Assembly (NCBI GenBank): GCA_965203165.1
Contig: OZ241849.1
Span: forward strand, 1,680,563-1,744,562
DNA from: Dehalococcoidia bacterium
GTDB lineage: Bacteria > Chloroflexota > Dehalococcoidia > Bin125
DNA length: 64,000 nt
Direction: 5' to 3'
Shown here: one piece after another, positions 4,603 through 31,165 of the stretch
Numbering within the stretch: position 1 is the stretch's first letter
Layout of the letters: every line of letters starts with the position of its first letter
Position numbers and translations under genes: made by a program
Notes under the pieces: generated by a model
The model's database searches: none
Told to the model about the DNA's origin: nothing
The model's input: only the letters and a program-made list of their open reading frames with translations

Positions 4603-4606
4603 CGCC

Positions 4607-4627: not shown

Positions 4628-4693
4628 CCGCCCGCCCGCTCGCGCCATACGCTGTCCCTGCCGTCAGGCGGCACAGGTCCGCGCAACGGGGCA

Positions 4694-5836: not shown

Positions 5837-5875
5837 CCCTCCTCCCGGCCCCAGCGCCCCGAAACCCACCCCGCC

Positions 5876-5934
5876 GCCGAACACCACCGAACACAGCCGA
5901 ACACAGCCGAACACAGCCGAACACCACCGAACAG
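5876..5934. repeat. 11-bp tandem repeat (ccgaacacagc/ccgaacaccac), about 5 units
   Basis: Seen directly in the sequence. Confidence 0.8.
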
Positions 5935-6059
5935 CGCCTGCACCCGCCACAGCACCCCAAACCCACCCCCGCCACTTACCAAGACCTACCAAAACCTACC
6001 AAACCTGACCGCGCCCCAACCCCCCCGACCAGATACAAACCCCACCTCCAACCCCGCCA

Positions 6060-6520
6060 ACTCCGTCACACCCGCGCCCACAGCTCCGTCATACCCGCGC
6101 TTGCCGCGGGTATCTCGCCGTGCCGAGCACCAAGCCCCGTTCCCGCCACCGCCACCGTCATACCCGCGCCCACAGCTCTGTCATACCCGCGCTTGCCGCG
6201 GGTACCCCGCCGCGCCGAGCACCAAGCCCCGTTCCCGCCACCGCCACCGTCATACCCGCGCCCAAAGCTCCGTCATACCCGCGCTTGCCGCGGGTATCTC
6301 GCCGCGCCGAGCACCAAGCCCCGTTCCCGCCACCGCCACCGTCATACCCGCGCCCAAAGCTCCGTCATACCCGCGCTTGCCGCGGGTATCTCGCCGCGCC
6401 GAGCACCAAGCCCCGTTCCCGCCACCGCCACCGTCATACCCGCGCCCAAAGCTCCGTCATACCCGCGCTTGCCGCGGGTACCCCGCCGTGCCGAGCACCA
6501 AGCCCCGTTCCCGTCACAGC
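6060..6520. repeat. 92-bp tandem repeat, about 5 units, each carrying a REP1 hairpin (tacccgcg-cttgc-cgcgggta). Flanked by 43-bp direct repeats (agcaccccaaacccacccccgccacttaccaagacctaccaaa) at about 5950-5995 and 6515-6560
   Basis: Period of 92 bp between successive gtcatacccgcgcttgccgcgggta occurrences (6089, 6181, 6273, 6365, 6457). Confidence 0.85.
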
Positions 6521-6625
6521 ACCCCCAACCCACCCCGGCCACTTACCAAGACCTACCAAACCCGACCACGCCCCACCACCCCCCAACCAGCTGAACACCC
6601 CAAGCCAGGCAAGCATGAACACGCC

Positions 6626-7831
6626 CTAAGAGTGTTGGGAGAAAGAGAGACGCAGGTCGGCGAGGAGCAGCCCGGGAATCTCCATGGCCGGAAAGTGGCC
6701 ACCCTCGGGGAACTCGGTCCAGTGCGCGACATTGAAGGCGCGCTCGCACCAGCTGCGCGGAGGCAGCGGGGTGCCGCGCACCAGCCGGGCGAAGCCGGTC
6801 GGCACGGCGACGCGCTCGCCCTCGCGCAGCCGCACCTGCCCGCCCAACTCGGCCTCAACCTCCGCCGCCGGCCGGCCGGCCTCGTGGTAAATGCGCATCG
6901 AGGAGTTGATCGTCTCCGTGAACCAGTAGATCGAGATGGTCGCGAGCAGCTCATCCATCGTGAAGCGGCGCAGGATGTCGCCGCCGCGCGGCGCCTCCTC
7001 GGGGCGCATGCAGTCGCTGAGCATCCACCACTTATCCACAATCCAGGCCGCGAGCCCGACGGGCGAATCGGCCAGCCCGTAGGAGAGCGTTTGAAAGCGG
7101 GTGCCGTGGATGGCGCGGTGAGCGGCGTCTTCGCGCACGTAGGGCGCCTGCTCGTCGCGGAAGAAGCGCTCCTCTTGCTCGGATTGCGCGCGCGCGGCCG
7201 CGCCGGGCGGGGCGAGGGCGGCGGCGGTGAGGTGCAGCGCGCGCAGCCGCTCCGGATGGCGCAGGCCCAGTTGGCCGCCGACCGCCGCGCCCCAGTCGCC
7301 GCCGTGATAGGCGAAGCGCTCGTAGCCGAGCTCGCGCATCAGCCGCGCCCAGAGGTCGGCGATGGCGGCCGGGCCGAGGCCGGCGCGGCGGGGGATGTCC
7401 GACCAGCCGTAGCCGGGCAGCGAGGGCGCGACGACGTGAAAGGCGGGCGCGGTCGGATCGTCGGGCTCGGCGAGCGCGTCGATGATCTTGTGGAATTCGT
7501 AGACGGAGGAGGGCCAGCCGTGCTGGATCAGCAGCGGAACAGCGTCGGCGCGCGGGCTGCGGCGGTGGATGAAGTGGATCCGAAGCGTCTCGCCGTTGGC
7601 GCAATCAAGCGGAGCGCGAAATTGCGGGAAGGCGTTGAGCCGCCGCTCAACGGCGCGCCAGTCGAAGCGCTCAACCCAGTGCTCGCAGAGCTCGCGCAGG
7701 AACGCAAGCTCGACGCCGTAGAGCCAGGCGGAGCCGGGCACTTCAGGCAGCCAGCGGGTGTTGCGCAGGCGCTCGCGCAGCGCCGCGATTTCGGCGTCGG
7801 GAACGGCGATGGTGTAGCGCTCGGGCTGCAT
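6626..7831 (-). CDS. Epoxide hydrolase (microsomal-EH-like N-terminal domain plus alpha/beta hydrolase)
   Basis: EHN domain motifs and the HGWP oxyanion motif. Paralogous to the adjacent gene. Confidence 0.85.
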   Translation of the reverse strand: MQPERYTIAVPDAEIAALRERLRNTRWLPEVPGSAWLYGVELAFLRELCEHWVERFDWRAVERRLNAFPQFRAPLDCANGETLRIHFIHRRSPRADAVPLLIQHGWPSSVYEFHKIIDALAEPDDPTAPAFHVVAPSLPGYGWSDIPRRAGLGPAAIADLWARLMRELGYERFAYHGGDWGAAVGGQLGLRHPERLRALHLTAAALAPPGAAARAQSEQEERFFRDEQAPYVREDAAHRAIHGTRFQTLSYGLADSPVGLAAWIVDKWWMLSDCMRPEEAPRGGDILRRFTMDELLATISIYWFTETINSSMRIYHEAGRPAAEVEAELGGQVRLREGERVAVPTGFARLVRGTPLPPRSWCERAFNVAHWTEFPEGGHFPAMEIPGLLLADLRLSFSQHS

Positions 7832-12104: not shown

Positions 12105-12641
12105 TCAGAGCTCGCGCTCGCGGACGCGGGGGCGTCCGTCCTGCTGGATGGTTTCGAGCAGCAGGCGCCGCGGGGGCGCGTCTGTCTCGCCGATTTCGAG
12201 GGCGATTTCGCTGGGCACCACCGAGTCGGGCTCCGCGCCTTCGTCAATCCGCCAGGCGCGCACGCCGGGCTCGGCGTCCATCAGCGTGACGAGCACCCAG
12301 AACGGCCAGGGATTGGGCCCGCGGTGCAGGCGGGCGATGTTGAGGTCGGTCGGAGACGGCCGCGCTTCGCTGGCGACATGCGAGTGGTAGATCACGAGCA
12401 TGTCGCCGTCGCTGCGCTCAATCGCGTTGTAGAGGTGAAGCAGTTCCTGCGGGGGGATGTTAAAGCGCCAGGGGGAGGCTTCGGCGTTGGTGGTGCGGTA
12501 GAGGGTGAGCGCGCCGTCGGCGGCGCGCGCGATGATGCCGCAGCACTCGTTGGGCGCGTCCTGCTGCGCGTGCGCGATCATCTCGTCGACCAGCTGCTGC
12601 GGGAGCGTGAGCGTGGGTTGGTCAGTCATTAGGTCGGTCAT
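12105..12641 (-). CDS. JAMM/MPN+ (Mov34) metalloprotease, Mec+/CysO-hydrolase-like
   Basis: JAMM motif ECCGII...HSHVASEARPSPTDL. Start taken at MTDLMTDQ, with ATGA overlap to the upstream gene. The track's N-terminal extension was rejected as Arg/Pro-rich. Confidence 0.8.
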   Translation of the reverse strand: MTDLMTDQPTLTLPQQLVDEMIAHAQQDAPNECCGIIARAADGALTLYRTTNAEASPWRFNIPPQELLHLYNAIERSDGDMLVIYHSHVASEARPSPTDLNIARLHRGPNPWPFWVLVTLMDAEPGVRAWRIDEGAEPDSVVPSEIALEIGETDAPPRRLLLETIQQDGRPRVREREL

Positions 12642-13252
12642 CGGGCTGCCGCTGTCTGCGTCGGCTGGCTGTTGGACCAGAAGGTACGCGCTTCGTGGTG
12701 GGGGACCTCTTCGCCCCAGCTGTCCCAGCCGGGCGCGCGGCTGCGGGCGAAGAGCTCGATCTTGGACTGGTCGGGGAACATTCGCTCGATGCGGTCGCGG
12801 ACCTCGCGCGGTTTCTCGGAGTGCCGCCCGCGCGGCGCGCTGACCAGCTGGCGAACGTCGCGGCGGCCGCGCGGCTGGGGGATGCGCCCGCGTTTGAAGA
12901 CGAGGCAGAGCTCGCACTGCGAGAGCGTGTAGTGGCCGGGGTTGACGCGCTGCTTGTCCCAGATGAAAGCGACGGTGGCCCAGGCGAAGCCCCAGGCTTT
13001 GCCCAGCTCGATCGCCTGATCGAGGTGCGGCGAGGTGGCCCAGAGGAAGAGCACGCAGTCGTCGGCTGCGATCTCCTGCACGGGCAGTTGCGCCAGGTCC
13101 CGGCTGGCGACGGTGGAAAAGTGCCGCGCCGCGCCGCCGCTGTCGCCGCTGCCGGGCCCGGCGTGCTGCAGCTGGCCTTTGTAGTCCCAGGGCGGGTCGG
13201 CGTAGATCACGGCGTAGCGCCGCTGCGGGAGCGGGGGGAACTCGGTCAGCAT
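12638..13252 (-). CDS. MT-A70 family (DPPW) adenine methyltransferase
   Basis: Hallmark YADPPWDY motif and a 204-aa length typical of the bacterial MT-A70 clade. Confidence 0.75.
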   Translation of the reverse strand: MLTEFPPLPQRRYAVIYADPPWDYKGQLQHAGPGSGDSGGAARHFSTVASRDLAQLPVQEIAADDCVLFLWATSPHLDQAIELGKAWGFAWATVAFIWDKQRVNPGHYTLSQCELCLVFKRGRIPQPRGRRDVRQLVSAPRGRHSEKPREVRDRIERMFPDQSKIELFARSRAPGWDSWGEEVPHHEARTFWSNSQPTQTAAAR

Positions 13253-13644
13253 GTCGGCTCCGGGCGCCAGTCGCGCAGCGGGCCGTCGTCGTGGCAGGCG
13301 CCGGGCGTGAGCTGCATCTTGAGCAGCGTGCGGCTGAGCTGCGGCGCGATCAGGTGGTCGAGCCAGTGCTCCCGCTCGTCTTCGGGGACGATCTGCGCGA
13401 GGTCGGCGAAGCGAATGTGGATCTCGTGCTCGTCGGCGACGATGCCGAAGTCGAGCACCGGCTTGCCCGGCCGCAGCAGGCGGCCGATCGTGTCGCTGCG
13501 CAGGATGCGGTTGTCGGGGCGCTCGAGGTAGCGCTCAAGCACGCCGGCGCGGAAGCGCAGGGGCAGCGCGGCCGCGTCGCCGCTGGCGGCGGCGCGCGCG
13601 ACCGTGCGCCGCCAGACGGGGTCCGAGGGCGGGTCCGCGGGCAT
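13246..13644 (-). CDS. Hypothetical protein (132 aa) translationally coupled to the MT-A70 gene
   Basis: GC3-rich ORF with a 7-nt overlap to the downstream gene. No recognisable domain. Confidence 0.4.
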   Translation of the reverse strand: MPADPPSDPVWRRTVARAAASGDAAALPLRFRAGVLERYLERPDNRILRSDTIGRLLRPGKPVLDFGIVADEHEIHIRFADLAQIVPEDEREHWLDHLIAPQLSRTLLKMQLTPGACHDDGPLRDWRPEPTC

Positions 13645-13653
13645 CTCGCGCGC

Positions 13654-14499
13654 TCAGGCGGAGGGGTTGTCGATCGGCACGCCGACCACGCTGCCGTACT
13701 CGGTCCAGGAGCCGTCGTAGTTGGTCGAGTTCTCGATGCCCAGCAGGTAGCGCAGCGCGAACCAGCTGTGCGAGGAGCGCTCGCCGATGCGGCAGTAGGC
13801 GATCACCGGCTGGTCGCCGCTGATGCCCTTGCTCCCGTAAATCTCGCGCAGCTCGTCGGCCGGCTTGAAGGTGCCGTCCTCGGCGACGGCGCTGGCCCAG
13901 GGAATGTTGGACGCGCCGGGCACGTGGCCCTTGCGCTGCGCGGTTTCGGGCAGGCCGGGCGGGGCCATGATCACGCCGTTGAACTCGTCGGGCGAGCGCA
14001 CATCGACCAGCTGGCCGCCCACGCCGATGTGGGCGATCACGTCGGGCAGCTTGGCGCGGATCGACTCGTCGCGCTCGGCGACCGCGATCGAGCCCGCGGC
14101 CGGCGCGGGGGCGTCGGTGCTGGTCGGGCGGCTCTCGGCCAGCCACTTGACCCGCCCGCCGTCCATCAGCGCGGTGTTGGCCACGCCGTACATCTCGAGC
14201 ATCCAGAGCGCGTAGGCCGCGAACCAGTTGTTGTTGTCGCCGTAGAGCACGATCTGCGAGTCGTCGTTCGCGCCCGCGCCGCGCAGCAGCGTTTGCACGG
14301 TCTCGCGGCTGGCCACATCGCGCTGCACCTGATCCTGCAGCTGGCTGGTCCAGTCCCAGGCCACCGCGCCGGGCGGGTGGCCCTCGTCGTACGCGCCGGT
14401 GTCGACGTCGACTTCGATCAGGCAGACGGCGGGGTCGTCGAGGTGCTCGGCGACCCACTGCGTGCTGACCAGCTTTTCGGGGTGTGCGTATTCGGTCAT
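13654..14499 (-). CDS. sseA: Thiosulfate/3-mercaptopyruvate sulfurtransferase (tandem rhodanese domains)
   Basis: Two rhodanese domains and the active-site loop CRIGERSS. Confidence 0.85.
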   Translation of the reverse strand: MTEYAHPEKLVSTQWVAEHLDDPAVCLIEVDVDTGAYDEGHPPGAVAWDWTSQLQDQVQRDVASRETVQTLLRGAGANDDSQIVLYGDNNNWFAAYALWMLEMYGVANTALMDGGRVKWLAESRPTSTDAPAPAAGSIAVAERDESIRAKLPDVIAHIGVGGQLVDVRSPDEFNGVIMAPPGLPETAQRKGHVPGASNIPWASAVAEDGTFKPADELREIYGSKGISGDQPVIAYCRIGERSSHSWFALRYLLGIENSTNYDGSWTEYGSVVGVPIDNPSA

Positions 14500-14563
14500 C
14501 GTTCTCGTCCTTTCGCGGAGCGTGCAGAGTGCTCCGCAGTTGCGCGTGTTGGGGCGGCGGGAA

Positions 14564-15544
14564 TCACCACCAGATTTTGCCCTCGATCGTTTCGTCGCCG
14601 GCGATGTCCTCGTAGTCGCGCGCCCAGAGGCCGGTGGAGAGGTACTTCCAGCCGCCGTCGGCGAGCAGGACGACGATGTGGGCGGTGTCGGCGCGCTCGG
14701 CGATGCGCTGCGCGGCGCGGACCGCCGCGCCGCAGGAGATGCCGGCGAAGACGCCCTCCTCTTCGAGCAGCGATTTGGTCACGGCGAAGGAGGTGCGGCT
14801 GTCGATCACGATGCGTCCGTCGAGCACGGACTCGTCGAGCACCGGCGGGATGTAGCCCTCGTCGAGGCTGCGCAGCCCCTGCACGAGGTCGCCGGGGTGC
14901 GGCGCGGCGGCGACGACTTTGATCTCGGCGCGCTGTTCTTTGAGGTAGCGGCCCACGCCGGTCAGCGTGCCGCCGGTGCCCAGCCCGGCGACGAAGTGGG
15001 TGATCTCCGGGCAGTCGCGCAGGATTTCGGGGCCGGTCGTCTCGTAGTGCGCGTTGGGGTTGGCGGCGTTTTCGTATTGCATGGGCATGAAGACGCTGGG
15101 GTCTTCGGCGTAGAGCTGTTTGGCCATGCGCACCGCGCCGTTGCTGCCCTGCTCGCCGGGCGAGAGGATCACTTCCGCGCCGAAGAAGGTCAGCAGGTCG
15201 CGCCGCTCGACGCTCACGCTCTCGGGCATCACGCAGCGCACCGGATGGCCGCTGAGCCGGCCGATCATCGCGATCGCCAGCCCGGTGTTGCCGCTGGTCG
15301 GCTCAAGGATCGTTTGGCCGGGCTGCAGCGAGCCGTCCGCGTGGGCGGCATCGAGCATGGACCGGGCGATGCGGTCTTTGACCGAGCCGGTCGGGTTCTG
15401 GCCCTCGAGCTTGACCCAGATCGCGGCGTCGGGATTGGGCGAGAGGTTGTTGAGCCGGACCAGCGGCGTGTTGCCGATCGTCTCCAGCAGGGAGCCGAAG
15501 CGGGCGGGCGGCGCAGCCACGGCGGCAGGGGCGGCGGTGGTCAT
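14564..15544 (-). CDS. cysM: Cysteine synthase B-like (CysM, the CysO-thiocarboxylate-dependent type)
   Basis: PLP motif SVKDR, fold-type II. The start overlaps the CysO stop (ATGA). Confidence 0.85.
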   Translation of the reverse strand: MTTAAPAAVAAPPARFGSLLETIGNTPLVRLNNLSPNPDAAIWVKLEGQNPTGSVKDRIARSMLDAAHADGSLQPGQTILEPTSGNTGLAIAMIGRLSGHPVRCVMPESVSVERRDLLTFFGAEVILSPGEQGSNGAVRMAKQLYAEDPSVFMPMQYENAANPNAHYETTGPEILRDCPEITHFVAGLGTGGTLTGVGRYLKEQRAEIKVVAAAPHPGDLVQGLRSLDEGYIPPVLDESVLDGRIVIDSRTSFAVTKSLLEEEGVFAGISCGAAVRAAQRIAERADTAHIVVLLADGGWKYLSTGLWARDYEDIAGDETIEGKIWW

Positions 15545-15819
15545 CGGCGGCCGCCCGCCAGGGCCGGCAGAATCGCCAGCACGTCGCCGTCGCTCAGCGC
15601 GGTTTCGAGACCCTCCAGGAAGCGGATGTCTTCGTCGTTGAGGAAGATGTTGACGAAGCGGCGCAGTTCGCCCTGCTCGAGCAGTTGGTCGCCGATGCCG
15701 GGGTAGGCGCGTTCGAGCGAGGCGAGCAGGTCGCCGACGTTGGCCGATTCGAGTTGGACGGACTTCTGCCCGTCGGTGAACTTTTGCAGCATCGACGGGA
15801 CGCGGACTTCAACCGGCAT
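15541..15819 (-). CDS. cysO: MoaD/ThiS-family sulfur-carrier protein CysO with a C-terminal Gly-Gly-Arg-Arg tail
   Basis: 92-aa beta-grasp protein ending ...ILPALAGGRR. Sits directly upstream of cysM. Confidence 0.8.
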   Translation of the reverse strand: MPVEVRVPSMLQKFTDGQKSVQLESANVGDLLASLERAYPGIGDQLLEQGELRRFVNIFLNDEDIRFLEGLETALSDGDVLAILPALAGGRR

Positions 15820-15856
15820 TGGGGGTGATCCTCTCCAGGGAGTCTCTGCGCCGGCG

Positions 15857-16960
15857 CTAGCCGCCGGCCGCGGCTGCGGGGCCCTCGTGGAAGGGCGAGC
15901 CGCAGAATTCTTCGTAGTCGATCAGCTCGGTGACGCTGGGCGCGTCGCCGCAGAGCGGGCAGGCGGGGTCGCGGCGGATTTTGACGGTGCGGAAGTCCAT
16001 CGCCAGCGCGTCGTAGAGCAGCAGGCGGTTCTTGAGCGGCTCGCCCTGCTCCAGCAGCACCTTGATCGCCTCGGTGGCCTGGATCGCGCCGATCGTGCCC
16101 GGCAGCACCCCGAGCACCCCCGCCTCCGAGCAGGAGGGCACCATCCCCGGCGGCGGCGGGCTGGGGTAGAGGCAGCGGTAGCAGCCCTGCCCGGGGAAGA
16201 ACGTGGTGACCTGCCCCTCGAAGAGGAAGATGCTGCCGTCGACGAGGATCTTCTCGGCCAGGAACGCGGCGTCGTTGACCAGGTAGCGGGTGGCGAAGTT
16301 GTCCGCGCCGTTGATGATCACGTCGTACTGCGGGATGATCTCCATCGCGTTTTCGGAGGTCAGCGGCTGGGTGTGGGTCTGGACGACGATGTTGGGGTTG
16401 AGGTCGGCGATGCGGTCCTGCGCGGATTCGACTTTGGGGCGTCCGATGTCGCTGGTGCCGTGGATGATCTGGCGTTGGAGGTTGGAGCGGTCGACGACGT
16501 CGAAGTCGACGATGCCGAGGGTGCCGATGCCGGCGGCGGCGAGGTAGACGAGCACGGGCGAGCCGAGCCCGCCCGCGCCGACGGCGAGCACTTTGCCGTC
16601 GATCAGCTTGCGCTGCCCGAGGGGGCCGACCTGGTCCATGATCAGGTGGCGGGAGTAGCGCTCGACCATTTCGGGCGTCATGGCCGCGCCGCCGGCGAGC
16701 GCGGGAATCACGGCCACTTCATCGCCGTCGCTGACCAGGGTGTCGGTGCCCTGCAGTGCGCGAATCTCCTGGCTGTTGAGATAGACGTTGACGTGCTCGA
16801 GCAGCTCCTGCTCGCCGTCGAAGACCATTTCGCCGAAACCCGGGTAGCGCTGGTCGAGGTCGCGCAGCACGCCGTGGACATCGCTGCCGCCGGCCTCGAC
16901 GAAGGTGCGGTTGCCGGTGATCTTGCGGAAGGGGGTGGGAATGTAGACCTTGACGGGCAT
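15857..16960 (-). CDS. In-frame fusion of a MoaD/CysO-like ubiquitin-like domain (91 aa, ending ...IPALAGG) and a ThiF/MoeB-type E1 adenylyltransferase (274 aa) joined by Ala-Ala
   Basis: ATG at 16960 with GAAGGAA about 8 nt upstream. No stop codon between GG and the E1 Rossmann motif (LAVGAGGLGSP). E1 CxxC pairs are present and there is no rhodanese domain. The track's 887-aa ORF N-terminal extension was rejected. Confidence 0.75.
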   Translation of the reverse strand: MPVKVYIPTPFRKITGNRTFVEAGGSDVHGVLRDLDQRYPGFGEMVFDGEQELLEHVNVYLNSQEIRALQGTDTLVSDGDEVAVIPALAGGAAMTPEMVERYSRHLIMDQVGPLGQRKLIDGKVLAVGAGGLGSPVLVYLAAAGIGTLGIVDFDVVDRSNLQRQIIHGTSDIGRPKVESAQDRIADLNPNIVVQTHTQPLTSENAMEIIPQYDVIINGADNFATRYLVNDAAFLAEKILVDGSIFLFEGQVTTFFPGQGCYRCLYPSPPPPGMVPSCSEAGVLGVLPGTIGAIQATEAIKVLLEQGEPLKNRLLLYDALAMDFRTVKIRRDPACPLCGDAPSVTELIDYEEFCGSPFHEGPAAAAGG

Positions 16961-16983
16961 GGGGCGTTCCTTCGCTGTTGGGC

Positions 16984-17919
16984 TCAGTCGTTGTCGAGCG
17001 GCATGCTGAGGTAGCGCTCGCCGGTGTCGCAGATCGTGGTGACGACGCGGCGGCCGGGGCCGAGCTGGCGGGCGATTTCGACGGCGGCGTGGACATTCGC
17101 GCCGGAGGAGATGCCGGCGAGCACGCCTTCCTCGCGGGTCAGCCGGCTGGTCATCGCGATCGCGTCCTCGTCGCTCACGCCGATCACCTCGTCGTAGATC
17201 TCGCGGTTCAGGACGCCGGGCACAAACGACGCGCCGATGCCCTGGATTTGGTGGACGGCGAAGCGTCCGCCCTGCAGGACGGGCGAGCGCAGCGGTTCGA
17301 CGGCGACGATTCGCAGGTCGGGCTTGCGCTCGCGGAGCCACTCGCCGACGCCCGTGATCGTACCGCCCGTGCCCACGCCGGTCACGAACGCGTCGAGTTC
17401 GCCGTCCAGCGCGGCCCAGATTTCGGGCGCGGTGCTGCGGCGGTGGATTTCCGGGTTGGAACGGTTGAGGAACTGCTGGGGCATGAAGTAGCCCGGTTCG
17501 GCCGCCAGCTCTTCGGCGGCGAAGACGGCCCCGGTCATGCCCTCGATCGCGGGCGTGAGCAGGACTTCCGCGCCGAAGCGCTCCAGCAGCCGGCGGCGTT
17601 CGCGGCTCATGTCCTCGGGCATCGTCAGGATCAGCCGGTAGCCCTTGACGGCGCAGACCAGCGCCAGGCCGACGCCGGTGTTGCCGGAGGTGGGCTCGAC
17701 GATCGCGTCGCCGGGCTGCAGCGCGCCGCTGCACTCGGCGTCCTCGATCATCGCGCGGGCGATGCGGTCTTTGACCGAGCCGCCGGGGTTGAGCGATTCG
17801 AGCTTGGCGACGAGCTCGGCGGCGGCGGGCGGCGCGACCCGGCTGAGCCGCAGCATCGGCGTCGCGCCGATCAGGTCGAGCACGGTTTCGGCGACTGGAG
17901 GCCGCTGGATGGTCGTCAC
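16984..17919 (-). CDS. cysK: Cysteine synthase A (O-acetylserine sulfhydrylase)
   Basis: PLP motif SVKDR and the TSGNTG loop, 311 aa. Confidence 0.9.
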   Translation of the reverse strand: MTTIQRPPVAETVLDLIGATPMLRLSRVAPPAAAELVAKLESLNPGGSVKDRIARAMIEDAECSGALQPGDAIVEPTSGNTGVGLALVCAVKGYRLILTMPEDMSRERRRLLERFGAEVLLTPAIEGMTGAVFAAEELAAEPGYFMPQQFLNRSNPEIHRRSTAPEIWAALDGELDAFVTGVGTGGTITGVGEWLRERKPDLRIVAVEPLRSPVLQGGRFAVHQIQGIGASFVPGVLNREIYDEVIGVSDEDAIAMTSRLTREEGVLAGISSGANVHAAVEIARQLGPGRRVVTTICDTGERYLSMPLDND

Positions 17920-17964
17920 TGAGGCTCGCGTTTCCGCTCGTGTGTGTGCGTGGGTGTGGGGCGG

Positions 17965-18399
17965 TCAGATGTGGTAGCGGCCGCCGGCAGCGGCCTCCTG
18001 GCGGGCGAGGTCTTCGACGGTGCGCCCGCCGAGCACCTGCAGAATGGCCGCCTGCACATCCGCCCAGAGGCGGACCTGTGCGGCGGCCCCCGTACAGCGC
18101 TCGACGGGCGCTTCGTCGAGGCAGGCGGCGGGCACGATCGGGCCTTCGAGCGCCTGCACGACGGCATCGAGCCGGATCGCGTCGGCGGGCAGCGCCAGCT
18201 GGTGTCCGCCCTGCGCGCCGCGCGTCGAGCGGATGAAGCCGGCCGTGCGCAGGCGTCCCAGCACCTGCCCCACGAGCGAGGCGGGAATCGCCTGGCGCAG
18301 CGCGATCTCGCTGCTGGGGATCGGCCCCGCGCCGGCCTGCTGGGCCAAATCCACGAGCGCGCGAATGCCGTAATCGCTCTTGCTGGACAGCTTCATCAT
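17965..18399 (-). CDS. Rrf2-family transcriptional regulator (CymR/IscR-like)
   Basis: N-terminal wHTH (SSKSDYGIRALVDLA). Diverges from cysH. Confidence 0.85.
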   Translation of the reverse strand: MMKLSSKSDYGIRALVDLAQQAGAGPIPSSEIALRQAIPASLVGQVLGRLRTAGFIRSTRGAQGGHQLALPADAIRLDAVVQALEGPIVPAACLDEAPVERCTGAAAQVRLWADVQAAILQVLGGRTVEDLARQEAAAGGRYHI

Positions 18400-18421
18400 G
18401 GCGGGTGGGCCGGCTCGGTTG

Positions 18422-18440
18422 GATGCCCGATTGGGGCATC
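18422..18440. promoter_or_regulatory. Palindrome GATGCCC-n5-GGGCATC in the Rrf2/cysH divergent intergenic region (candidate operator). A second palindrome CGAAAT-n6-ATTTCG lies at about 18466-18483
   Basis: Seen directly in the sequence. Sits 23 nt upstream of the Rrf2 start. Confidence 0.3.
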
Positions 18441-18513
18441 GGCGCTACGATGCTGACAATCCTAACCGAAATGGTCCGATTTCGCCCGGACGCCCCGGAG
18501 TTGTGAGTGTCGC

Positions 18514-19275
18514 ATGCCACACCAAGCGCCGCCCGATCAACCGCTGCCAGACCAACCGCTGCTTGCCGAGTACGACGCCGCCGAGGCCGCCGCGCGGCTG
18601 GAGCGCGCGCATCCGGCCGACATCGTGGCGGAGGCGCTGGAGCGCTTCCCGGGGCTGAGCATCTCGTTCAGCGGCGCGGAGGACGCGGCGCTGATCGATA
18701 TGGCGCACCGCGCGGCGGGGCCCGACGGCTTCCGCGTCTTTTCGTTGGACACGGGGCGGCTGCACGGCGAAACGCTGGCCTACCTGGAGACGGTGCGGGA
18801 GCGCTACGGGATCACGATTGAGACGTTTCACCCGCAGGCGGCGGCGGTCGGGGCGCTGGTGCGCGAGAAGGGGCTGTTCTCGTTTCGGCGCGACGGCCAC
18901 GCCGAATGCTGCGGGATTCGCAAGGTGGAGCCGCTGGGCCGGGCGCTGGAGGGCGTGATCGCCTACGCCACGGGGCAGCGCAAAGACCAAAGCCCGGGCA
19001 CGCGCGCGGAGTTGCCCGTGGCGCAGCGCGACGGAATGCGGGTGAAATTCAACCCGCTGGCCAACTTCCGCTCAGAGCAGGTCTGGGACTACATCCTGAG
19101 CTACGGCGTGCCCTACAACCCGCTGCACGATCGCGGCTTCAAGTCAATCGGCTGCGAGCCCTGCACCCGCGCGACGAACCCGGGCGAGCACGAGCGGGCG
19201 GGCCGCTGGTGGTGGGAAGAGGCGACGCAGAAGGAGTGCGGCCTGCACGCGATCAATCTGGCTGAGGACCGCTGA
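18514..19275 (+). CDS. cysH: Adenylylsulfate (APS)/PAPS reductase, thioredoxin-dependent, Fe-S type
   Basis: PAPS_reduct domain. Cys pairs CCGIRK and CEPCT are typical of APS reductases. Confidence 0.85.
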   Translation: MPHQAPPDQPLPDQPLLAEYDAAEAAARLERAHPADIVAEALERFPGLSISFSGAEDAALIDMAHRAAGPDGFRVFSLDTGRLHGETLAYLETVRERYGITIETFHPQAAAVGALVREKGLFSFRRDGHAECCGIRKVEPLGRALEGVIAYATGQRKDQSPGTRAELPVAQRDGMRVKFNPLANFRSEQVWDYILSYGVPYNPLHDRGFKSIGCEPCTRATNPGEHERAGRWWWEEATQKECGLHAINLAEDR

Positions 19276-19538: not shown

Positions 19539-20498
19539 TCAGCCCCGCGCCATCCCGCCGCGGCGCAGGCGGCCGCGCGGCGACCGACCGCCGCCCCCGC
19601 CGCCAAAGCCGCCGCCCGAATCGGAGCCCATGCGCGAGCGGCGCAGCAGCCAGGCGGCCATCACCAGCGCCGCCGCGCCGGTGACCATCGCCGTAATCTG
19701 CGGCACCGAGAGGCCGCCAATCGCCAGCGCTTCGTCGGTGCGCATGATCGAGAGCGTGCCGCGCACCAGGGCGTAGGCCAGCACGTAGACGACGAAGCGC
19801 CAGCCGTCGCCGATCGGGAAGCGGCGCATCCAGAGCAGGATGCCGAGGATCAGGAAGTCGAACAGCGGCTCGTAGCCGCCCGCCACCGGATGGACGGGCA
19901 CGGGCGCTTCGCCGGGGCGCTCGAGCGAGCCGCGAAACCAGGCGCCGACGGCCTCGCCGTTTTCCCAGACGGCCCAGGGGCCGTCGGTCTGCGGGTGGGT
20001 GTAGCGGAAGGCCCAGGGGAGGTCGGTTTGAGAGGCGAAGTGCTCGCCGTTGGCGAAGTCGCCGAAGCGCCCCACGGCCTGGCCGAGAATCATGCCCGGC
20101 GCGGCGACATCAAGCGCGACCCACTTCGGAAATTTGGGCTTGAAGATGGAGACGTAGAGGAAGCCGCCGAGCACGCCGCCGATCATCGCGCCGTAGATCG
20201 AGATGCCGCCGTCGGTCAGCGCGAAGAGGTCGCCCACATCGCGGATCTGGTCGGTGTGCTCGAGGATCCAGAGAACGCGCGCGCCAATGATGCCGGAGAC
20301 GACGGAAACGATGGCGATGCTCATCGACTCGTCTTCGTTGAGCCGCGCCTGTCGGGCCAGTCGGATGGCAAGCCAAACCCCCGCCGCAATCCCAACAGCG
20401 GTGAAAAGCCCATGCCAGGTGACTTCAAACCCGCCCGCGTCGATCAGGACGGGGTTGATCTTGATGTTGATGGCGGCGACAAGAGAGGCAAGCACCAA
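19539..20498 (-). CDS. lgt: Prolipoprotein diacylglyceryl transferase
   Basis: Lgt signature region (GARVLWILEH...) and multiple TM helices. Confidence 0.85.
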   Translation of the reverse strand: MVLASLVAAINIKINPVLIDAGGFEVTWHGLFTAVGIAAGVWLAIRLARQARLNEDESMSIAIVSVVSGIIGARVLWILEHTDQIRDVGDLFALTDGGISIYGAMIGGVLGGFLYVSIFKPKFPKWVALDVAAPGMILGQAVGRFGDFANGEHFASQTDLPWAFRYTHPQTDGPWAVWENGEAVGAWFRGSLERPGEAPVPVHPVAGGYEPLFDFLILGILLWMRRFPIGDGWRFVVYVLAYALVRGTLSIMRTDEALAIGGLSVPQITAMVTGAAALVMAAWLLRRSRMGSDSGGGFGGGGGGRSPRGRLRRGGMARG

Positions 20499-20619
20499 GC
20501 GAGCCTACCGCGCGCGGCAGTGGCGGGCGCCGCGAGCCGCGCACCAAGCCCCGCTCGCAGCGCCGACCCTCCTCCCGCCACCCCTGCGCCCCCTCCCGTC
20601 ACCCCTGCGCCCCCTCCCG

Positions 20620-20643
20620 TCATTCCTGCGTAGGCAGGAACCA
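20620..20643. repeat. REP2 element (gtcattcctgcgtaggcaggaacc)
   Basis: Member of a dispersed family. Other copies at 44828-44880, 45079-45125, 49314-49606 (x4) and 61589-61618. Confidence 0.8.
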
Positions 20644-20715
20644 GGCGATTTCGCGAGCTCTTGGCCGAGTTCTGTCTCGCCCCTCACTTGGTCTCCCGCC
20701 CAATCAGCGAGGAGG

Positions 20716-20762
20716 CGCCCCAATTCATCCCTCCCCCCTCTCTGGGGGGAGGGATGAATTGG
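20716..20762. repeat. Near-perfect 19-bp-stem palindrome ccccaattcatccctccccc...gggggagggatgaattgggg (motif recurs at about 45026-45060)
   Basis: Seen directly in the sequence. Confidence 0.7.
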
Positions 20763-20919
20763 GGTGAGGAGTGGTGCGGTAGCTCTGTGCTGGGCGCGGC
20801 GAAGCGTGGGTACGACGGGCAGAGGGTGGGTGGAGGAGCGGCCCAGGTGGGCCGTCGCAGCATCGTGGCGCGCACAGACGCTGGAAGTCCGCCTGGATTG
20901 CGAGCTCAAGACCGCCCAC

Positions 20920-22500
20920 TCAGAGCAGGCGGCGGCGCTCCCAGGAGGCGGGGATGGGCAGATCAGGGAAGCGGCCCGCGAAGTAGTCGGCCAGCGACCA
21001 GAGTTGGACTGCGGGGTATTCGCGGTCGCCGATTGCGACTCGCCCGGCGCGGCCGGCGGCGGCGCGCACGCCCGCGCTGACCTCGTCCATCGTCAGGAAC
21101 ACGCCGAGGTCGGCGCTGGCGTCGTCGAGCGCGCTGCGGAAGGCCTGCACATCGGCGGGAGCGACGCGGCCGGATTTGACCTGGGCGACAGCGAGTCCGT
21201 CGGGGCGGCGGCGGCCCTCGGTTTTGCGGAAGCGCATTCGCCCGTCGATGCCGCCGTCGCCGCGCTGGCGCTCGTTGGGGCGGAAGCCGCGCAGCCGCTG
21301 GATTGCCCAGGTCTCGAACTGGAAGGGGTCGCGGCCGGCGAGGTCGCGCGCCGAGCCGAGGTCCTGCGGCGCGCCCAGCACGCGCGGCTCGACGCCGATC
21401 TCGTTGAGCCAGTCTTCGACGATGCCGATGGCGAGATGGGTGATGTCGATTCCGGCCCAGCGGCGGCCGAGATTTTCGGCGGCGACGACGGCTGTGCCGC
21501 AGCCGCAGAAGGGATCCAGCACGAGGTCGCCGGGGTTGGAGGCGAGGCTGATGATCCGCTCGAGCAGGCGGAGCGGCTTTTGCGTCGGATAGCCCCGCCG
21601 CGTCAGATCCCGCGAGCCGAGCGGGGGAATGTCCACCCAGACATCGCCCAGCGGCATCCCGCGCTGCTCGTCGAGGTAGCGCACGTAGCGGGGCACCGCG
21701 CCGGGGCGGGCCTGGACAATGCGGCCCTCGTCGTATTCCTGCTGCATCCGCTCGCGCGTCCAGCGCCAGACGCGCGTGACGCCCAGGAACTCATAGGTGA
21801 GGTTGGGCCGCTCTTTGTGGGGATTGACCAGGTTGTCGAGGGCGTACCGCCGACCATCCGCGTCCTCATGCCGGTAGTGCTCGAGCGTCGCCGGATCGAT
21901 GTTTTTCGGGTCGTACGGGACGAATACTTCATCCATGTTCCAAACGGCGTCGGGGCTGCCCGCGTAGGCGAAGATCATGTCGTGGTTGCGGGGCAGGCGG
22001 CGGGTGGCGAGGCCTTTCGCCGCTGTTCTGCGCCAGATGATCTGGTTGCGAAAGTTGTCGCCATGAAAGGCGGCGTCCATCACCAGCTTCAGATAATGGC
22101 CGGCGGTGGTGTCGCAGTGCAGAAAGATGTTGCCGCTGGGCTTGAGCACGCGGCGCAGCTCGACCAGCCGCACGCCCATCATGCAGAGATAGGCCGTGAG
22201 CTGGTTTTCGCCGATCGAATCGGTCAGCGCGTTGAGCAGGTTGCCGGTCGGCGTGCCGTTGAGATCGAGCAGCGCGTCGACGGCGTCCGGCCCCCAGTGC
22301 CAGGTGTCTTCAAAGGCGCGGATTTGCGAGGGCGCGGTGTTGCCGCTCTCGTCGCGGAAGAGCACATTGTAGCTGGCGTTGGAATTGAACGGCGGGTCGA
22401 GATAGACGAGGTCCACCGAGTGGTCGGGAAACTCGTTGCGCAGCACATCGAGGTTGTCGCCGTAGAAGAGCGAGCCTTCAAGGCCGGTGGCGTCGGGCAT
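20920..22500 (-). CDS. N4/N6 DNA methyltransferase (beta-class: DPPF motif before FxGxG) fused to a C-terminal Mrr-like (Mrr_cat, PD-D/ExK) restriction-endonuclease domain
   Basis: Motifs YLDPPFNSN and LDPFCGCGT. The C-terminal part carries D-GGIDG...Q-K, diagnostic of the Mrr catalytic domain. Confidence 0.8.
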   Translation of the reverse strand: MPDATGLEGSLFYGDNLDVLRNEFPDHSVDLVYLDPPFNSNASYNVLFRDESGNTAPSQIRAFEDTWHWGPDAVDALLDLNGTPTGNLLNALTDSIGENQLTAYLCMMGVRLVELRRVLKPSGNIFLHCDTTAGHYLKLVMDAAFHGDNFRNQIIWRRTAAKGLATRRLPRNHDMIFAYAGSPDAVWNMDEVFVPYDPKNIDPATLEHYRHEDADGRRYALDNLVNPHKERPNLTYEFLGVTRVWRWTRERMQQEYDEGRIVQARPGAVPRYVRYLDEQRGMPLGDVWVDIPPLGSRDLTRRGYPTQKPLRLLERIISLASNPGDLVLDPFCGCGTAVVAAENLGRRWAGIDITHLAIGIVEDWLNEIGVEPRVLGAPQDLGSARDLAGRDPFQFETWAIQRLRGFRPNERQRGDGGIDGRMRFRKTEGRRRPDGLAVAQVKSGRVAPADVQAFRSALDDASADLGVFLTMDEVSAGVRAAAGRAGRVAIGDREYPAVQLWSLADYFAGRFPDLPIPASWERRRLL

Positions 22501-22506
22501 GGGGCG

Positions 22507-24759
22507 TCATTTTCGCTTCTGGACGCTGTGCGGACCAGCGTAGTCGTCGCTGAAGCGGTTGCGCAGGCGGCGGGCCGGCGCGGCGGGAGCGGGCGCGGCC
22601 TCGCCGGCGGCTGCGCGCGCGATCTGCTCCAGCTCGCGGGTCAGGCGGACGCCGTGGCCGGCCTGCCCGGCGAGCGCGATGCGGTCGTCGGTGAGGCGCG
22701 CCCAGACCCGCCGGCGGGGCATGAAAAAGGTCGTCGACATCCCCACCACGCCCAGCGCGACGCCGATCCAGAAGGGAATGCCGCCCGGGTCGCGGCGCAC
22801 ATTGAGACCGGTGAACTCGCGCGGGCCGGCGAACTCGTAGCGGTAGCCGTTGGCCACGATCTCCTGCCCCTCGTCAAGCTCGATTCGAGCCGCGCCGCCG
22901 CCCAGACCGAGCACCAGGCGGGCGGGGCGTCCGACCTGCCCGCCGGCGCTGGTGGCGTTGGTGCCCACCGCCAGATCGACATCTTCGCCGCCCATCGCGT
23001 TGATGCCCGTTTCGCTGAACTGCTCGGCGGTGCGGGCCTGCCCGAAGCGTTCGAGCGCGAGCAGCGCCTCGCCCTCCGCCCCGGGCAGGTCGGCCACGGT
23101 CGCCCAGAAAACGGACTCCGCGCCGAGATAGGTGAGCTCGACCGCGCCGACGCGGCTGGACTGGCCGCTTTCGAGGCTGCCGCCGAGCGTGGCGTCGGGC
23201 GCGCCGCCGAGGTACTCGAGCGTCGCTCCGCCGAGACGCGCGCGCGCGCCCGGCTGGAGGATGCCGCGGGCGGCCTCGTCGTTGAACGAGTAGTAGAAGA
23301 AGGTGCGCTCGTCGGCGCTCTCGCGGAAGCCGATCGCCGCGCCCCCGCCGTCGGGCAGCGCGAGCGCGGCGAGCCGCGCCTCCCCCTCGCGCAGACCAAG
23401 GCTGACGAGCCCGTCGATCAGCACCTCGCCGTCGCCGCCGGTCAGCCGCACGCGCGGGGCCCAGGGCGGCTCCCGGCCGACGCCCAGCTGCGCCGGCGTC
23501 AGCTGCCGCGCTTCGGGGGAATTGAGGTCGAGGTCGAGCAGTCGGTACCAGAACTGGAGGCTGACCTCGCCCTCGGGCGACTCGCGGGGGATCAGGGCGA
23601 CGGCGAGGCTGCGCTCGGCGGCGAGCGGAACGAGGGTGTAGCGAGCGCCCTGCGGGGCGTCGCCCGCGACGGGGTGTTGCAGGCCCAGCACATCCTCGCT
23701 GACCAGCGCGCCGCCGCGCGCGATCCGCACGCGCGGACCGACGAGCTGCTCGCCGAGGAAGTGCGCCTCGGAGTAGACCAGCTGGCCGCTGGCGTGGTCG
23801 TAGATGCGCAGCGCCGCGCCGTGCTCCCAGTAGGACGCCTGATGGACGCGGTAGCCGGCGGCATGCAGCGGGCCGTTGACCGTCACATCGCCCTCGCCGG
23901 CCGGCGCGCCGCCTTCGGCGACGCGGACCTTGCTGCGGAAGTCGAGCGCCTGGCCGTCGTCGGCGAAGCGGGCGATCGCGTCGTCGACGATGATCTGGAT
24001 CTGGGCCCGCTCCGCGCCCGGCGCGAAGAGCGGATGGCTCTCGCCCTCGGCGACCCAGAACTGGTACTCCTCGCCGCCGAACTTGGTCACCAGCGTCGCG
24101 CCGAGCAGCAGCAACAGCGCGAGATGCGTCACGAATGTCGCGAGCTGGGTCCAGCCGAAGCGATCGGCGAAGAGATCGATGGCGTCATCAGTCTCCGCAA
24201 TCGGCTCGACCCGATATCGGCGGGACCGCAGCGCCGCGCTCAGCGCGGCGGCGCGCTCACTGGGCGAAACAGGCGAGTCGGGCGCGGCGCTCTGAGGCAA
24301 GTCGAGCGCGAAGCGGTGCCGCGCTCGCTCGAAGTAGGTGGGGTTGACGCGCCGCGGCGGGCGGCGCACCGTGCGCCAGATCGGCGCCGCGCGGCTCACC
24401 GTGCAGACCGCGATCGCCACGGCCACCAGCGCGACCAGCGCGTACCAATAGGGCTGCTTGTAGAGATTGAAGACGCCTCCCTTGGCGTCATAAAACCAGG
24501 GGAATTCAGCGAGGGCGTCGGTCGCCCAGCCAAAAGTGCCGCGCTGGGCGTCGATGTGCTGCCGCACCTGCTCCGGAATGTCGGCCAGTTGCGGCGGAAC
24601 CTGCGGGATGATCACCCCGGCGGCGGAGAACAGCGCGGCGATCAGGATCAGCGCCGCAGCCCAGCGAACAGAGGTGAGCCGCCGCCAAATCCAATACGCG
24701 GGGTGGGGCAAACCAATTCGCCCGGCGGGACGGCGGGGGCTGGAGCTGACTGCCGCCAT
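22507..24759 (-). CDS. Cytochrome c biogenesis protein ResB/Ccs1-like with a long C-terminal extension
   Basis: N-terminal ResB TM region (RRLTSVRWAAALILIAALF...). Start chosen at MAAVSS; the upstream part of the track ORF is uncertain. Confidence 0.65.
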   Translation of the reverse strand: MAAVSSSPRRPAGRIGLPHPAYWIWRRLTSVRWAAALILIAALFSAAGVIIPQVPPQLADIPEQVRQHIDAQRGTFGWATDALAEFPWFYDAKGGVFNLYKQPYWYALVALVAVAIAVCTVSRAAPIWRTVRRPPRRVNPTYFERARHRFALDLPQSAAPDSPVSPSERAAALSAALRSRRYRVEPIAETDDAIDLFADRFGWTQLATFVTHLALLLLLGATLVTKFGGEEYQFWVAEGESHPLFAPGAERAQIQIIVDDAIARFADDGQALDFRSKVRVAEGGAPAGEGDVTVNGPLHAAGYRVHQASYWEHGAALRIYDHASGQLVYSEAHFLGEQLVGPRVRIARGGALVSEDVLGLQHPVAGDAPQGARYTLVPLAAERSLAVALIPRESPEGEVSLQFWYRLLDLDLNSPEARQLTPAQLGVGREPPWAPRVRLTGGDGEVLIDGLVSLGLREGEARLAALALPDGGGAAIGFRESADERTFFYYSFNDEAARGILQPGARARLGGATLEYLGGAPDATLGGSLESGQSSRVGAVELTYLGAESVFWATVADLPGAEGEALLALERFGQARTAEQFSETGINAMGGEDVDLAVGTNATSAGGQVGRPARLVLGLGGGAARIELDEGQEIVANGYRYEFAGPREFTGLNVRRDPGGIPFWIGVALGVVGMSTTFFMPRRRVWARLTDDRIALAGQAGHGVRLTRELEQIARAAAGEAAPAPAAPARRLRNRFSDDYAGPHSVQKRK

Positions 24760-24921
24760 CAACGCCTCGAATCCTCCACAAGGCAGCCTACTAGGGCGCG
24801 CCCACGCATACCGCAAACCTCGTCACCTCTACTCCACCCCCTCCGCACCAGCGCGCACACCCGCCACTGGAGCTAGTGCGCCGGCATCTGGGAAGGGCCG
24901 GAATAGGGCTGCGCCGAGTGC

Positions 24922-26013
24922 TTACTCGCCGCCGCCGCTCGCCCCCTGCTTGAGGCCGTGGCCGGTGAGCGGGACGATCACGTGCTCGTCGGGGCCAATC
25001 ACGCCGTCGCGGCGGAGTTGCTCAAGCGCGGCTACGGGCACGGCGGAGGTGGGCTCGCACCAGTAGCCCGTGCGCCCGAGCTCGCGCTGCGCCTCGAGGA
25101 TGTCTGCTTCGGCGACGCCGACGGCGGAGCCGCCGCTTTCACGTACGGCCTCCACCATCTCGGCCAGACGCGGTGGCTCGGCGACCGCGATGCCGTCGGC
25201 CACGGTGGCCGCGGCGAGCGGCGGCGACTCGCCGTTGAGGGCGGCGACGAGCGGGGCGACGGCCTGGGCCTGCGCGGCGTGCAGGCGAGGGATGCGATCG
25301 GCCTTATCGGTCTGGATCAGCTCCTGAAAGCCGCGCCAGAGGCCGAGCAGCAGCGAGCCGTTGCCGACGGGCATGACGATGTGATCCGGCAGGTGGTCGG
25401 GCGTCACACCGATCAGCTGGGAGGCGAACTCCCAGGCGAGGCTTTTCATGCCTTCGGCGAAGTAGGGGCTGAGGTTGTGCGAGAGGTAGGGCAGTCCGCG
25501 CTGCTCGGCGAAGCGCTGGGCGGCTTCAGCGGCGGCAGCGCGGGGGCCGTCGACACGGTGGGCGATGCCGCCGACGCCTTCAATTTGGGCGCGCTTCATC
25601 GGCGGGGCGGAGGCGGGCAGGAAGATGTGGGCGGTGATGCCTGCTGCGGCAGCGAAAGCGGCCAGGGCTGCGCCGGCGTTGCCGGAGGAGTCTTCGACAA
25701 ATTCGGCGGTCTTGAAGGCGCGGGCGGCACCGATCAGGATCGCGGCCCCGCGATCTTTGAAGGAGCCGGTCGGGGAGAAGAATTCGAGTTTGGCGGAGAA
25801 ACCGCCGGCGAGGGGCAGTTCGGTCAGCGGCGTCCAGCCGCCGCGCAGGGAGACGGGGAGCCAGGGGATGCGGGCTTCGTAGCGGCGCGGCGGATCGTGG
25901 TATCGGATGCAGAAGAGTCCGCCGCATTCGGGGCAGCGCAGGTCCAGACTGGGCGCGCAGGAGCGTCGGCAATCGAGGCAGACGAGGTGGTGATCGTAGT
26001 TGGGGTGGGGCAT
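24922..26013 (-). CDS. thrC: Threonine synthase (second ThrC-family paralog with an N-terminal Zn-ribbon)
   Basis: CLDC...CPEC ribbon and PLP motif SFKDRG. Start at MPHPNYDH. Confidence 0.8.
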   Translation of the reverse strand: MPHPNYDHHLVCLDCRRSCAPSLDLRCPECGGLFCIRYHDPPRRYEARIPWLPVSLRGGWTPLTELPLAGGFSAKLEFFSPTGSFKDRGAAILIGAARAFKTAEFVEDSSGNAGAALAAFAAAAGITAHIFLPASAPPMKRAQIEGVGGIAHRVDGPRAAAAEAAQRFAEQRGLPYLSHNLSPYFAEGMKSLAWEFASQLIGVTPDHLPDHIVMPVGNGSLLLGLWRGFQELIQTDKADRIPRLHAAQAQAVAPLVAALNGESPPLAAATVADGIAVAEPPRLAEMVEAVRESGGSAVGVAEADILEAQRELGRTGYWCEPTSAVPVAALEQLRRDGVIGPDEHVIVPLTGHGLKQGASGGGE

Positions 26014-30547: not shown

Positions 30548-31165
30548 TCAGCGCGCTTCCCAGACCTGGTTCATGTCGATTTCGAGGCCGACGCAGACAT
30601 CCTTGCCGAGCAGTCGGTCGGGGCGGTCGAGCTGTTCAACAGAGCCGTCGGCGCGGTAGATCCAGACCTGCTCCTCATAGGGGTCGATCAGCCAGCCAAG
30701 CCGCACGCCGTTGTCCATCCAGCGGCGCATCCGGGAATGCCGCGCTGTAATCCACTGTTCGGGCGAGAAAACCTCCGCCACGAACGCAGGCGCGAAGTCG
30801 CGCTGCCTGCCGTGCGCTTCGAGCTGGCTGGGAGAGATCCACGAGACGGCGGGCGCGAGGACGGAGCTGTCGGGCAGGAGGTAACTCCCTCGGCTGCTCC
30901 GCGTTGCTCCACCCACCCCGGACTCCATTTCCCAGCGGCCGACAAACGCGATCAGCTTTGTGCCGACGCTCACGCTGAGACCGTCCGGCCAGGGGACCTG
31001 CACAAGCTGTCCGTTGGCGGTGCGCTCGAAGAACTGCTCGGGATTGAGCTCGCTGATCTGGAGGAGCCGCTCATTCGTGAGCTCCCAGTCGGACGGCAAA
31101 CGGATCGGAAACGGCGTGTCGCCGATCAGCGGCTCAACCTCAACGGGCTGGCGCTGGGTGACCAT
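30548..31165 (-). CDS. Uma2-family (DUF820) PD-(D/E)xK endonuclease
   Basis: Uma2 motifs (...PAFVAEVFSPEQ...). Confidence 0.7.
   Translation of the reverse strand: MVTQRQPVEVEPLIGDTPFPIRLPSDWELTNERLLQISELNPEQFFERTANGQLVQVPWPDGLSVSVGTKLIAFVGRWEMESGVGGATRSSRGSYLLPDSSVLAPAVSWISPSQLEAHGRQRDFAPAFVAEVFSPEQWITARHSRMRRWMDNGVRLGWLIDPYEEQVWIYRADGSVEQLDRPDRLLGKDVCVGLEIDMNQVWEAR

Follow-up and report, generated by a model that had tools for sequence, protein, structure and literature searches.

A beta-class DNA methyltransferase with a C-terminal Mrr-type nuclease domain as a candidate single-polypeptide restriction-modification enzyme in Dehalococcoidia

In a 64,000-nucleotide stretch of the genome of a Dehalococcoidia bacterium (contig OZ241849.1, positions 1,680,563 to 1,744,562; hereafter the window), a single gene at 20920..22500 on the minus strand encodes a complete beta-class DNA methyltransferase joined to a C-terminal nuclease domain of the Mrr type. 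We consider it roughly an even bet (probability about 0.5) that this protein is a self-contained, single-polypeptide restriction-modification enzyme that follows a type IIC/IIG-like logic, with a beta-class, Mod-like methylase and a C-terminal Mrr cleavage module. We favor this reading because the essential catalytic residues of the nuclease are invariant among its relatives, the domain is under purifying selection, the recognition cassette has been exchanged, no conserved partner gene accompanies the family, and copies are found on plasmids and phages; these features and the domain anatomy were all computed here. A sequence-only reading of this stretch had proposed the same fusion, with no separate restriction gene, and had offered a type IIG-like enzyme as one of three interpretations, with no preference among them. 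The fusion is borne out by Pfam and by translation, the adjacent genes encode ResB and Lgt, and the type IIG-like interpretation is the one that the evidence favors, although the protein stands outside the characterized type IIG families.

The 526-residue open reading frame (ORF) starts with ATG and contains no internal stop codon, and its GC content by codon position (0.70/0.46/0.88) is like that of the neighboring genes. Pfam places an N6_N4_Mtase domain (PF01555) at residues 29-355 (E = 5.2e-39, 134.9 bits against a cutoff of 26.7) and an Mrr_cat domain (PF04471) at residues 391-493 (E = 1.6e-8, 35.1 bits against a cutoff of 21). Motif IV, DPPF, is found at residues 35-38 (nt 22387-22398) in a conserved N-terminal methylase part (residues 1-128; 22117..22500), and the S-adenosylmethionine motif I, FCGCG, at residues 331-335 (nt 21496-21510) in a conserved C-terminal methylase part (residues 304-372; 21385..21591), which also holds PTQKP (nt 21574-21588) and aligns with M.BceJIV, MboIIA and CcrM. 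Because motif IV is N-terminal to motif I, the methylase is assigned to the beta class. The recognition region lies between the two motifs, in a variable central cassette (residues ~129-303; 21592..22116) that contains the target-recognition domain. An Asp in the DPPF motif suggests N6-adenine, the base that this methylase probably modifies. The PD-(D/E)xK nuclease domain spans residues 373-500 (21001..21384), and translation places its motifs I-III as FE at nt 21313-21318, GDGGIDG at nt 21241-21261 and QVK at nt 21175-21183. The chain ends in a short conserved tail (residues 501-526, with the stop codon; 20920..21000) in which P515 is invariant in the alignment. All of these parts are encoded on the minus strand.

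An AlphaFold2 model of the whole protein has a mean pLDDT (predicted local distance difference test score) of 81.5 and a pTM (predicted template modeling score) of 0.76. A fold search with the whole chain recovered only methylases, the best match being EcoP15I Mod (E = 6e-19). The model of the C-terminal domain (pLDDT 88.8) finds its best fold matches in AspBHI, AF1548, MspJI, LlaBIII and FokI, which are detachable cleavage modules, and this favors the restriction-modification reading. Fold searches were needed here: compared by sequence with solved structures, the C-terminal profile gave no match even at E <= 10. PADLOC labels the protein MTase_II/III, with 184.6 bits for its type II methylase models and 121.7 bits for type III.

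The active site of the nuclease domain is found to be that of E. coli Mrr. Profile alignment of the C-terminal domain with E. coli Mrr (hhalign probability 95.6%, E = 1.3e-8) places E396, D415, D419, Q440 and K442 on Mrr residues E172, D199, D203, Q219 and K221, respectively, so that the window protein has the full Mrr configuration; the loss of catalytic residues that would have undone the earlier proposal is not what the alignment shows. In the Mrr-family module of LlaGI, the counterparts of D415, D419 and K442, namely the motif II aspartates D74 and D78 and the motif III lysine K94, are each indispensable for cleavage, whereas mutation of the motif I Glu or the motif III Gln gives only partial defects (PMC2790908). 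We compared these positions in 207 near-full-length relatives from many phyla, each longer than 450 residues. D415 and K442 are present in all 207 and D419 in 206, whereas motif I varies between Glu and Gln and motif III between Gln and Ser. Judged by sequence, the family thus repeats the LlaGI hierarchy, in which essential residues are invariant and dispensable ones vary, a pattern expected of catalysis rather than of mere binding. The methylase motifs are equally constant, with DPPF in 206 of the 207 sequences (the exception is N-terminally truncated) and F-x-G-C-G in every one. The two motif sets are kept together: no member has lost either, the only departures being one D419N substitution and the one truncated sequence.

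The ratio of nonsynonymous to synonymous substitution rates (dN/dS) gives a similar picture. Against the three syntenic orthologues (loci L001, L002 and L003), the nuclease segment has dN/dS values of 0.04, 0.06 and 0.09, indistinguishable from the methylase core at 0.03-0.21, and the C-terminal tail has a value of 0.03 against both L001 and L002. Purifying selection acts on the nuclease domain as strongly as on the methylase core, and the domain looks intact, not decayed. A match of 28.7 bits to NA-iREase1 (PF22722, NACHT-associated inactive REase 1) was considered as a sign of inactivity and rejected. Active E. coli Mrr scores higher on the same profile, at 40.9 bits, and the catalytic residues are present, so the match reflects cross-matching of related families.

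The recognition cassette has been exchanged between syntenic orthologues, and linked paralogues differ mainly there. An orthologue, P0008, occupies the same position between ResB and Lgt genes on a 3.1-Mb contig (L003). Its identity to the window protein is 76-78% in the N-terminal part, 64% in the C-terminal methylase part and 83-85% in the nuclease, but just 17-20% in the central cassette (~129-303); the central segment extracted from the two proteins (query residues ~172-302) has 130 residues in the window protein and 156 in P0008. In the same genome the neighboring ResB and Lgt share 65% and 75% identity with those of the window, and GltX from the same contig shares 74%. Among named database entries, the best GltX matches come from Chloroflexi/Chloroflexota metagenome-assembled genomes at 72-73% identity, and the window derives from an uncultured Chloroflexota lineage. 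Since the identity of the flanking parts is comparable to that of ResB, Lgt and GltX while that of the cassette is 17-20%, the backbone has tracked the genome and the cassette has been replaced. The converse pattern is found among the hundred-odd best database matches, distant family members that share 58% of the cassette and only 30% of the nuclease. Moreover, at three loci with two linked paralogues each, the cassette is the most divergent region of the pair, with cassettes 25-42% identical and methylase flanks 70-93% identical. The cassette dN/dS is 0.24 against L002, which has the same cassette type, here faster-evolving, and ~1.0 against L003. Type I S subunits and type III Mod alleles turn over their specificity in this modular way, whereas conserved regulatory methylases such as Dam or CcrM do not; the recognition domain of the present family is not conserved among orthologues as it would be in a Dam- or CcrM-like methylase. 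No characterized homologue covers the cassette.

No gene accompanies the family consistently. Clustering of the ORFs in 85 loci yielded no gene, apart from the methylase, that is present in more than 10, and we conclude from this that the protein is a stand-alone unit. The recurrent neighbors are response regulators, ABC (ATP-binding cassette) ATPases, SDRs (short-chain dehydrogenases/reductases) and similar generic families at variable distance and orientation, and were rejected as partners on that account. No res (helicase-nuclease) gene, other helicase, MutS/MutL or repair gene is recurrent or linked in these loci. The family itself is large and patchy. The nuclease-domain profile alone recovers 700 clusters at E <= 1e-30 among 1.84 billion representatives, and members are spread over Chloroflexota, Acidobacteriota, Alphaproteobacteria, Actinomycetota, Desulfobacterota-type lineages, Verrucomicrobiota and one Thermoplasmatales archaeon. 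Most have ~530-550 residues, and sources annotate them as plain methyltransferases. Some carry an N-terminal HTH_3 domain, a helix-turn-helix domain also being found in autoregulated methylases of restriction-modification systems.

Some copies lie in mobile or defense-like settings. Full-length copies are found on plasmids, for example pMLa of Mesorhizobium japonicum; a Microbacterium amylolyticum copy sits between zeta-toxin and Fic/VbhA modules, that is, among toxin-antitoxin genes; and 28 phage records hold copies that cover at least 80% of the query. Gp48 of Streptomyces phage Werner (L092, 4965-6608) lies two genes from a serine integrase and gp42 of Mycobacterium phage Dori (L093, 4983-6620) between the lysis genes and the integrase. 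Both retain all methylase and nuclease motifs, and both are annotated only as DNA methyltransferase. A homology search with residues 300-526, aimed at backbone relatives with other cassettes, returned mostly fragments of 220-396 residues and was not usable to count cassette types. Three that we inspected are genes disrupted by insertion sequences (IS) or otherwise broken, and stand-alone nuclease genes were not demonstrated. Of these remnants (L089, 5001-5753; L090, 5001-5732; L091, 4378-5750), one has IS transposases as its neighbors, and the other two are genes broken in long-read assemblies of low coverage; at L091 an intact gene for a 527-residue N6_N4_Mtase protein (5810-7393) is convergent with the broken copy.

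The mode of action that we infer for a restriction-modification enzyme of this kind covers cutting, its block by methylation, the base modified, dimerization and the position of the cut. The beta-class methylase would read a short DNA sequence through its internal cassette (~129-303) and methylate the host chromosome there. On incoming DNA in which the site is unmethylated, binding by the cassette would let the tethered Mrr-type module cut nearby, as a non-specific cleavage domain like those of MspJI, LlaGI/LlaBIII and FokI. Specificity would be changed by a swap of the central cassette. A double-strand cut would probably need two nuclease domains, brought together by dimerization of the methylase or by two bound sites; beta-class methylases, among them EcoP15I Mod, M.BceJIV and CcrM, usually dimerize. 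The expression of the gene may bear on this scheme. The resB stop codon (22507-22509) is followed by a spacer of only 6 nt before the methylase ATG (junction 22501..22509, minus strand), which suggests co-transcription. No sigma-70-like promoter was found in 20300-25200, which together with the tight junction suggests low expression coupled to that of resB. Single-chain enzymes, according to a review, can be limited to methylation while their concentration is low and turn into cutters once they assemble (PMC12707154).

Several points weigh against the restriction-modification reading. All structurally characterized methylase-nuclease fusions are gamma-like with an N-terminal nuclease, and there is therefore no direct precedent for the present layout. 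Neither PADLOC nor PHROGs has a model that covers the nuclease half of the protein. In the literature (REBASE was outside the scope), we found no paper that measures cleavage, methylation or restriction for any member of the family, and no experimental paper on the layout of a beta-class methylase with a C-terminal Mrr domain. Most members have Gln in motif I and many have Ser in motif III, so that only two carboxylates are universal, and residues of the active site could also be conserved for a metal-dependent DNA binding that involves no hydrolysis. Finally, the gene has been kept in a housekeeping row, with native codon usage, while ResB and Lgt diverged to 65-75% identity, a stability that one would sooner expect of a domesticated solitary methylase.

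These last points lead to the chief alternative, also raised in the sequence-only reading, which we regard as unlikely: a solitary (orphan) methylase in which the Mrr fold no longer cuts and serves DNA binding or dimerization, like the unrelated C-terminal domain of CcrM, and in which the methyl mark has a host function such as gene regulation or replication. Such a methylase would account for the missing restriction neighbor, the stable syntenic position and native composition, the plain methyltransferase annotations and the departures at motifs I and III, and beta-class CcrM likewise has an extra C-terminal DNA-binding domain. It sits poorly with the pattern of residue conservation: each of the three residues that hydrolysis requires is kept in 206-207 of the 207 sequences, and it is the dispensable positions that vary. 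Cassette swapping between orthologues and between linked paralogues would, moreover, rewire any regulatory methylome, and the family is patchy, resides on plasmids and phages and includes broken and IS-disrupted copies. A quite different host role, drawn purely by analogy with Dam and MutH, would be that of a methylase-nickase for repair or replication that marks DNA strands and nicks the unmethylated one, for which any recognition sequence would do. Cassette exchange would then be tolerated, a single nuclease domain per chain would be expected to nick rather than cut, and the housekeeping context and vertical inheritance in this lineage would fit. We nevertheless give this idea very little weight: it has no direct support, no MutS/MutL or repair gene is linked in the 85 loci, genomes can hold multiple paralogues, and defense or addiction is a better fit for copies that neighbor toxin-antitoxin genes on plasmids or integrases in phages.

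Similarly improbable in our view is a type IV-like arrangement, also among the interpretations of the sequence-only reading, in which the Mrr module attacks foreign-methylated DNA and the methylase has a separate role. The nuclease domain does belong to the Mrr family, and its best structural matches include the modification-dependent AspBHI and MspJI. However, sensing in Mrr and in MspJI/AspBHI resides in separate N-terminal readers (Mrr_N and SRA, respectively), and of the two Mrr domains Pfam finds only Mrr_cat in the window protein, whereas it finds Mrr_N in E. coli Mrr. The same catalytic module cuts unmodified DNA in LlaGI (PMC2790908), and an enzyme that joined a methylase to a nuclease active on methylated DNA would attack what it had itself methylated.

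With the type IIC/IIG enzymes MmeI, BpuSI, Eco57I and DrdV, the window protein has in common a PD-(D/E)xK nuclease, an amino-methyltransferase and a recognition element in one chain, no R gene, and specificity that changes through a recognition module. The characterized enzymes have an N-terminal nuclease, a gamma-class (topology A) methylase and a C-terminal recognition domain; in contrast, the window protein has a beta-class methylase, an internal cassette and a C-terminal nuclease, and at 526 residues is about half their size. Nuclease and methylase are thus combined in one polypeptide without an R gene, but not in the architecture of any characterized type IIG family, and the protein belongs to none of them. 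The type ISP enzymes LlaGI and LlaBIII share its nuclease family, but they are proteins of ~1500 residues with an N-terminal nuclease, an ATP-dependent translocase and a gamma-class methylase, whereas the window protein has neither a helicase domain nor a helicase gene. Type III Mod subunits such as EcoP15I Mod are also beta-class, with conserved N- and C-terminal parts around a variable central recognition region, a likeness reflected in the MTase_III match of PADLOC. Type III systems need a separate Res with helicase and nuclease, while here no such gene is linked and the nuclease is part of the methylase chain itself.

E. coli Mrr and the type IV enzymes MspJI and AspBHI have a homologous catalytic domain with the same active-site configuration. 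These proteins carry a reader domain (Mrr_N or SRA) and no methylase, whereas the N-terminal 370 residues of the window protein form an apparently active methylase. CcrM-type solitary methylases are beta-class, have an additional C-terminal domain, lack a restriction partner and are chromosomally stable, all of which the window protein shares with them, but in CcrM the C-terminal domain has no nuclease fold and the specificity is conserved, whereas the window protein keeps its nuclease residues and its cassette is exchanged. Three candidates for membership of the family were rejected: Haloferax HVO_A0006, an N-terminal fragment from a gamma-type IIG enzyme; Panchino gp28, which is a fusion of type I-like kind; and Shedu-methylase fusions, which contain a different nuclease.

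The methylase gene lies between the genes for ResB (22507-24816, upstream) and Lgt (19539-20498, downstream), with no restriction or helicase gene beside it and no res gene in the window. The ResB-methylase-Lgt order is also found in L001, L002 and L003, with a 4-nt overlap of resB and the methylase gene in L002, and is kept to 60% identity, the stable chromosomal position that an orphan methylase would have. In L001, a relative of 97% identity, a SocA_Panacea (antitoxin-type) gene and a second methyltransferase-Mrr_cat paralogue of 551 residues lie between the methylase gene and lgt (4419-6752). The cassette of this second paralogue is just 25% identical to that of the neighboring copy, and the insertion forms a small defense-like islet.

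In the window, the gap between the methylase stop codon and lgt is 420 bp, compared with just 24-30 bp in L002 and L003. It contains a perfect hairpin at 20715-20767 with a stem of ~21 bp (CCCCAATTCATCCCTCCCCCC...GGGGGGAGGGATGAATTGGGG). The 18-mer arm of this hairpin recurs at 45042-45059 (3 matches against 0.06 expected by chance), which suggests a small dispersed repeat. Rfam microRNA matches to the hairpin were sub-threshold and were rejected as hairpin artefacts. A G-rich 21-nt unit (ACGGGAGGGGGCGCAGGGGTG) is repeated in tandem, in two full copies and a partial one, just upstream of the lgt start (~20575-20625, minus strand).

Further genes in the window touch on methylation or on nuclease folds. 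A gene for an MT-A70-family methyltransferase (12638-13252, minus strand; E = 5.8e-24) overlaps by 7 nt with an ORF of 132 residues that has no Pfam match (13246-13644, minus strand). The same relative position holds an MT-A70 gene in L002 and a MunI-family restriction endonuclease gene in L001; it is a second variable spot for methylation or restriction, ~8 kb from the methylase-nuclease gene. The PD-(D/E)xK gene of the Uma2 family to which the sequence-only reading had drawn attention, 8 kb away on the other side, is real (30548..31165, minus strand; Pfam E = 4.5e-21), but has no linkage to the methylase family. It was rejected as a partner because it belongs to a housekeeping neighborhood conserved in L002 and L003, is multi-copy or tandem elsewhere and does not recur beside family members. 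Downstream of the methylase-nuclease gene, the region 13654-18520 holds a cysteine or thiocarboxylate gene set of the sulfur-carrier type, syntenic in L001-L003, with a ThiS-ThiF fusion, ThiS, PALP enzymes, a rhodanese, an Rrf2 regulator, a PAPS (3'-phosphoadenosine 5'-phosphosulfate) reductase and a glutaredoxin-like protein.

The family as a whole may be an unrecognized class of minimal stand-alone restriction-modification enzymes with at least about 700 clusters at 50% identity, in many phyla, on plasmids and in temperate actinophages, a generalization that we put forward tentatively. The combination of a beta-class methylase with an Mrr_cat domain is common in databases and visible to Pfam, and the surprise is in that respect moderate; the cassette-swap and selection evidence provides a concrete, testable case, built on sequence comparison, that many such "orphan" methylases may be restriction enzymes. 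If the nuclease is inactive, a nuclease fold has been kept for another purpose with its active-site residues frozen, which would also need explaining. If it is active, proteins now counted as solitary methyltransferases are one-gene restriction systems. Estimates of the number of "orphan" methylases would then change, especially in Chloroflexota, Acidobacteriota, Actinomycetota and their phages: defense catalogues would be scoring such proteins as plain methylases, and part of "orphan" methylation would really be restriction. Phage copies beside integrases would become candidate lysogen-protection genes. A compact architecture of beta-class methylase, internal exchangeable cassette and C-terminal cleavage module would be added to the restriction enzymes, and its modular cassette could make the family reprogrammable cutters.

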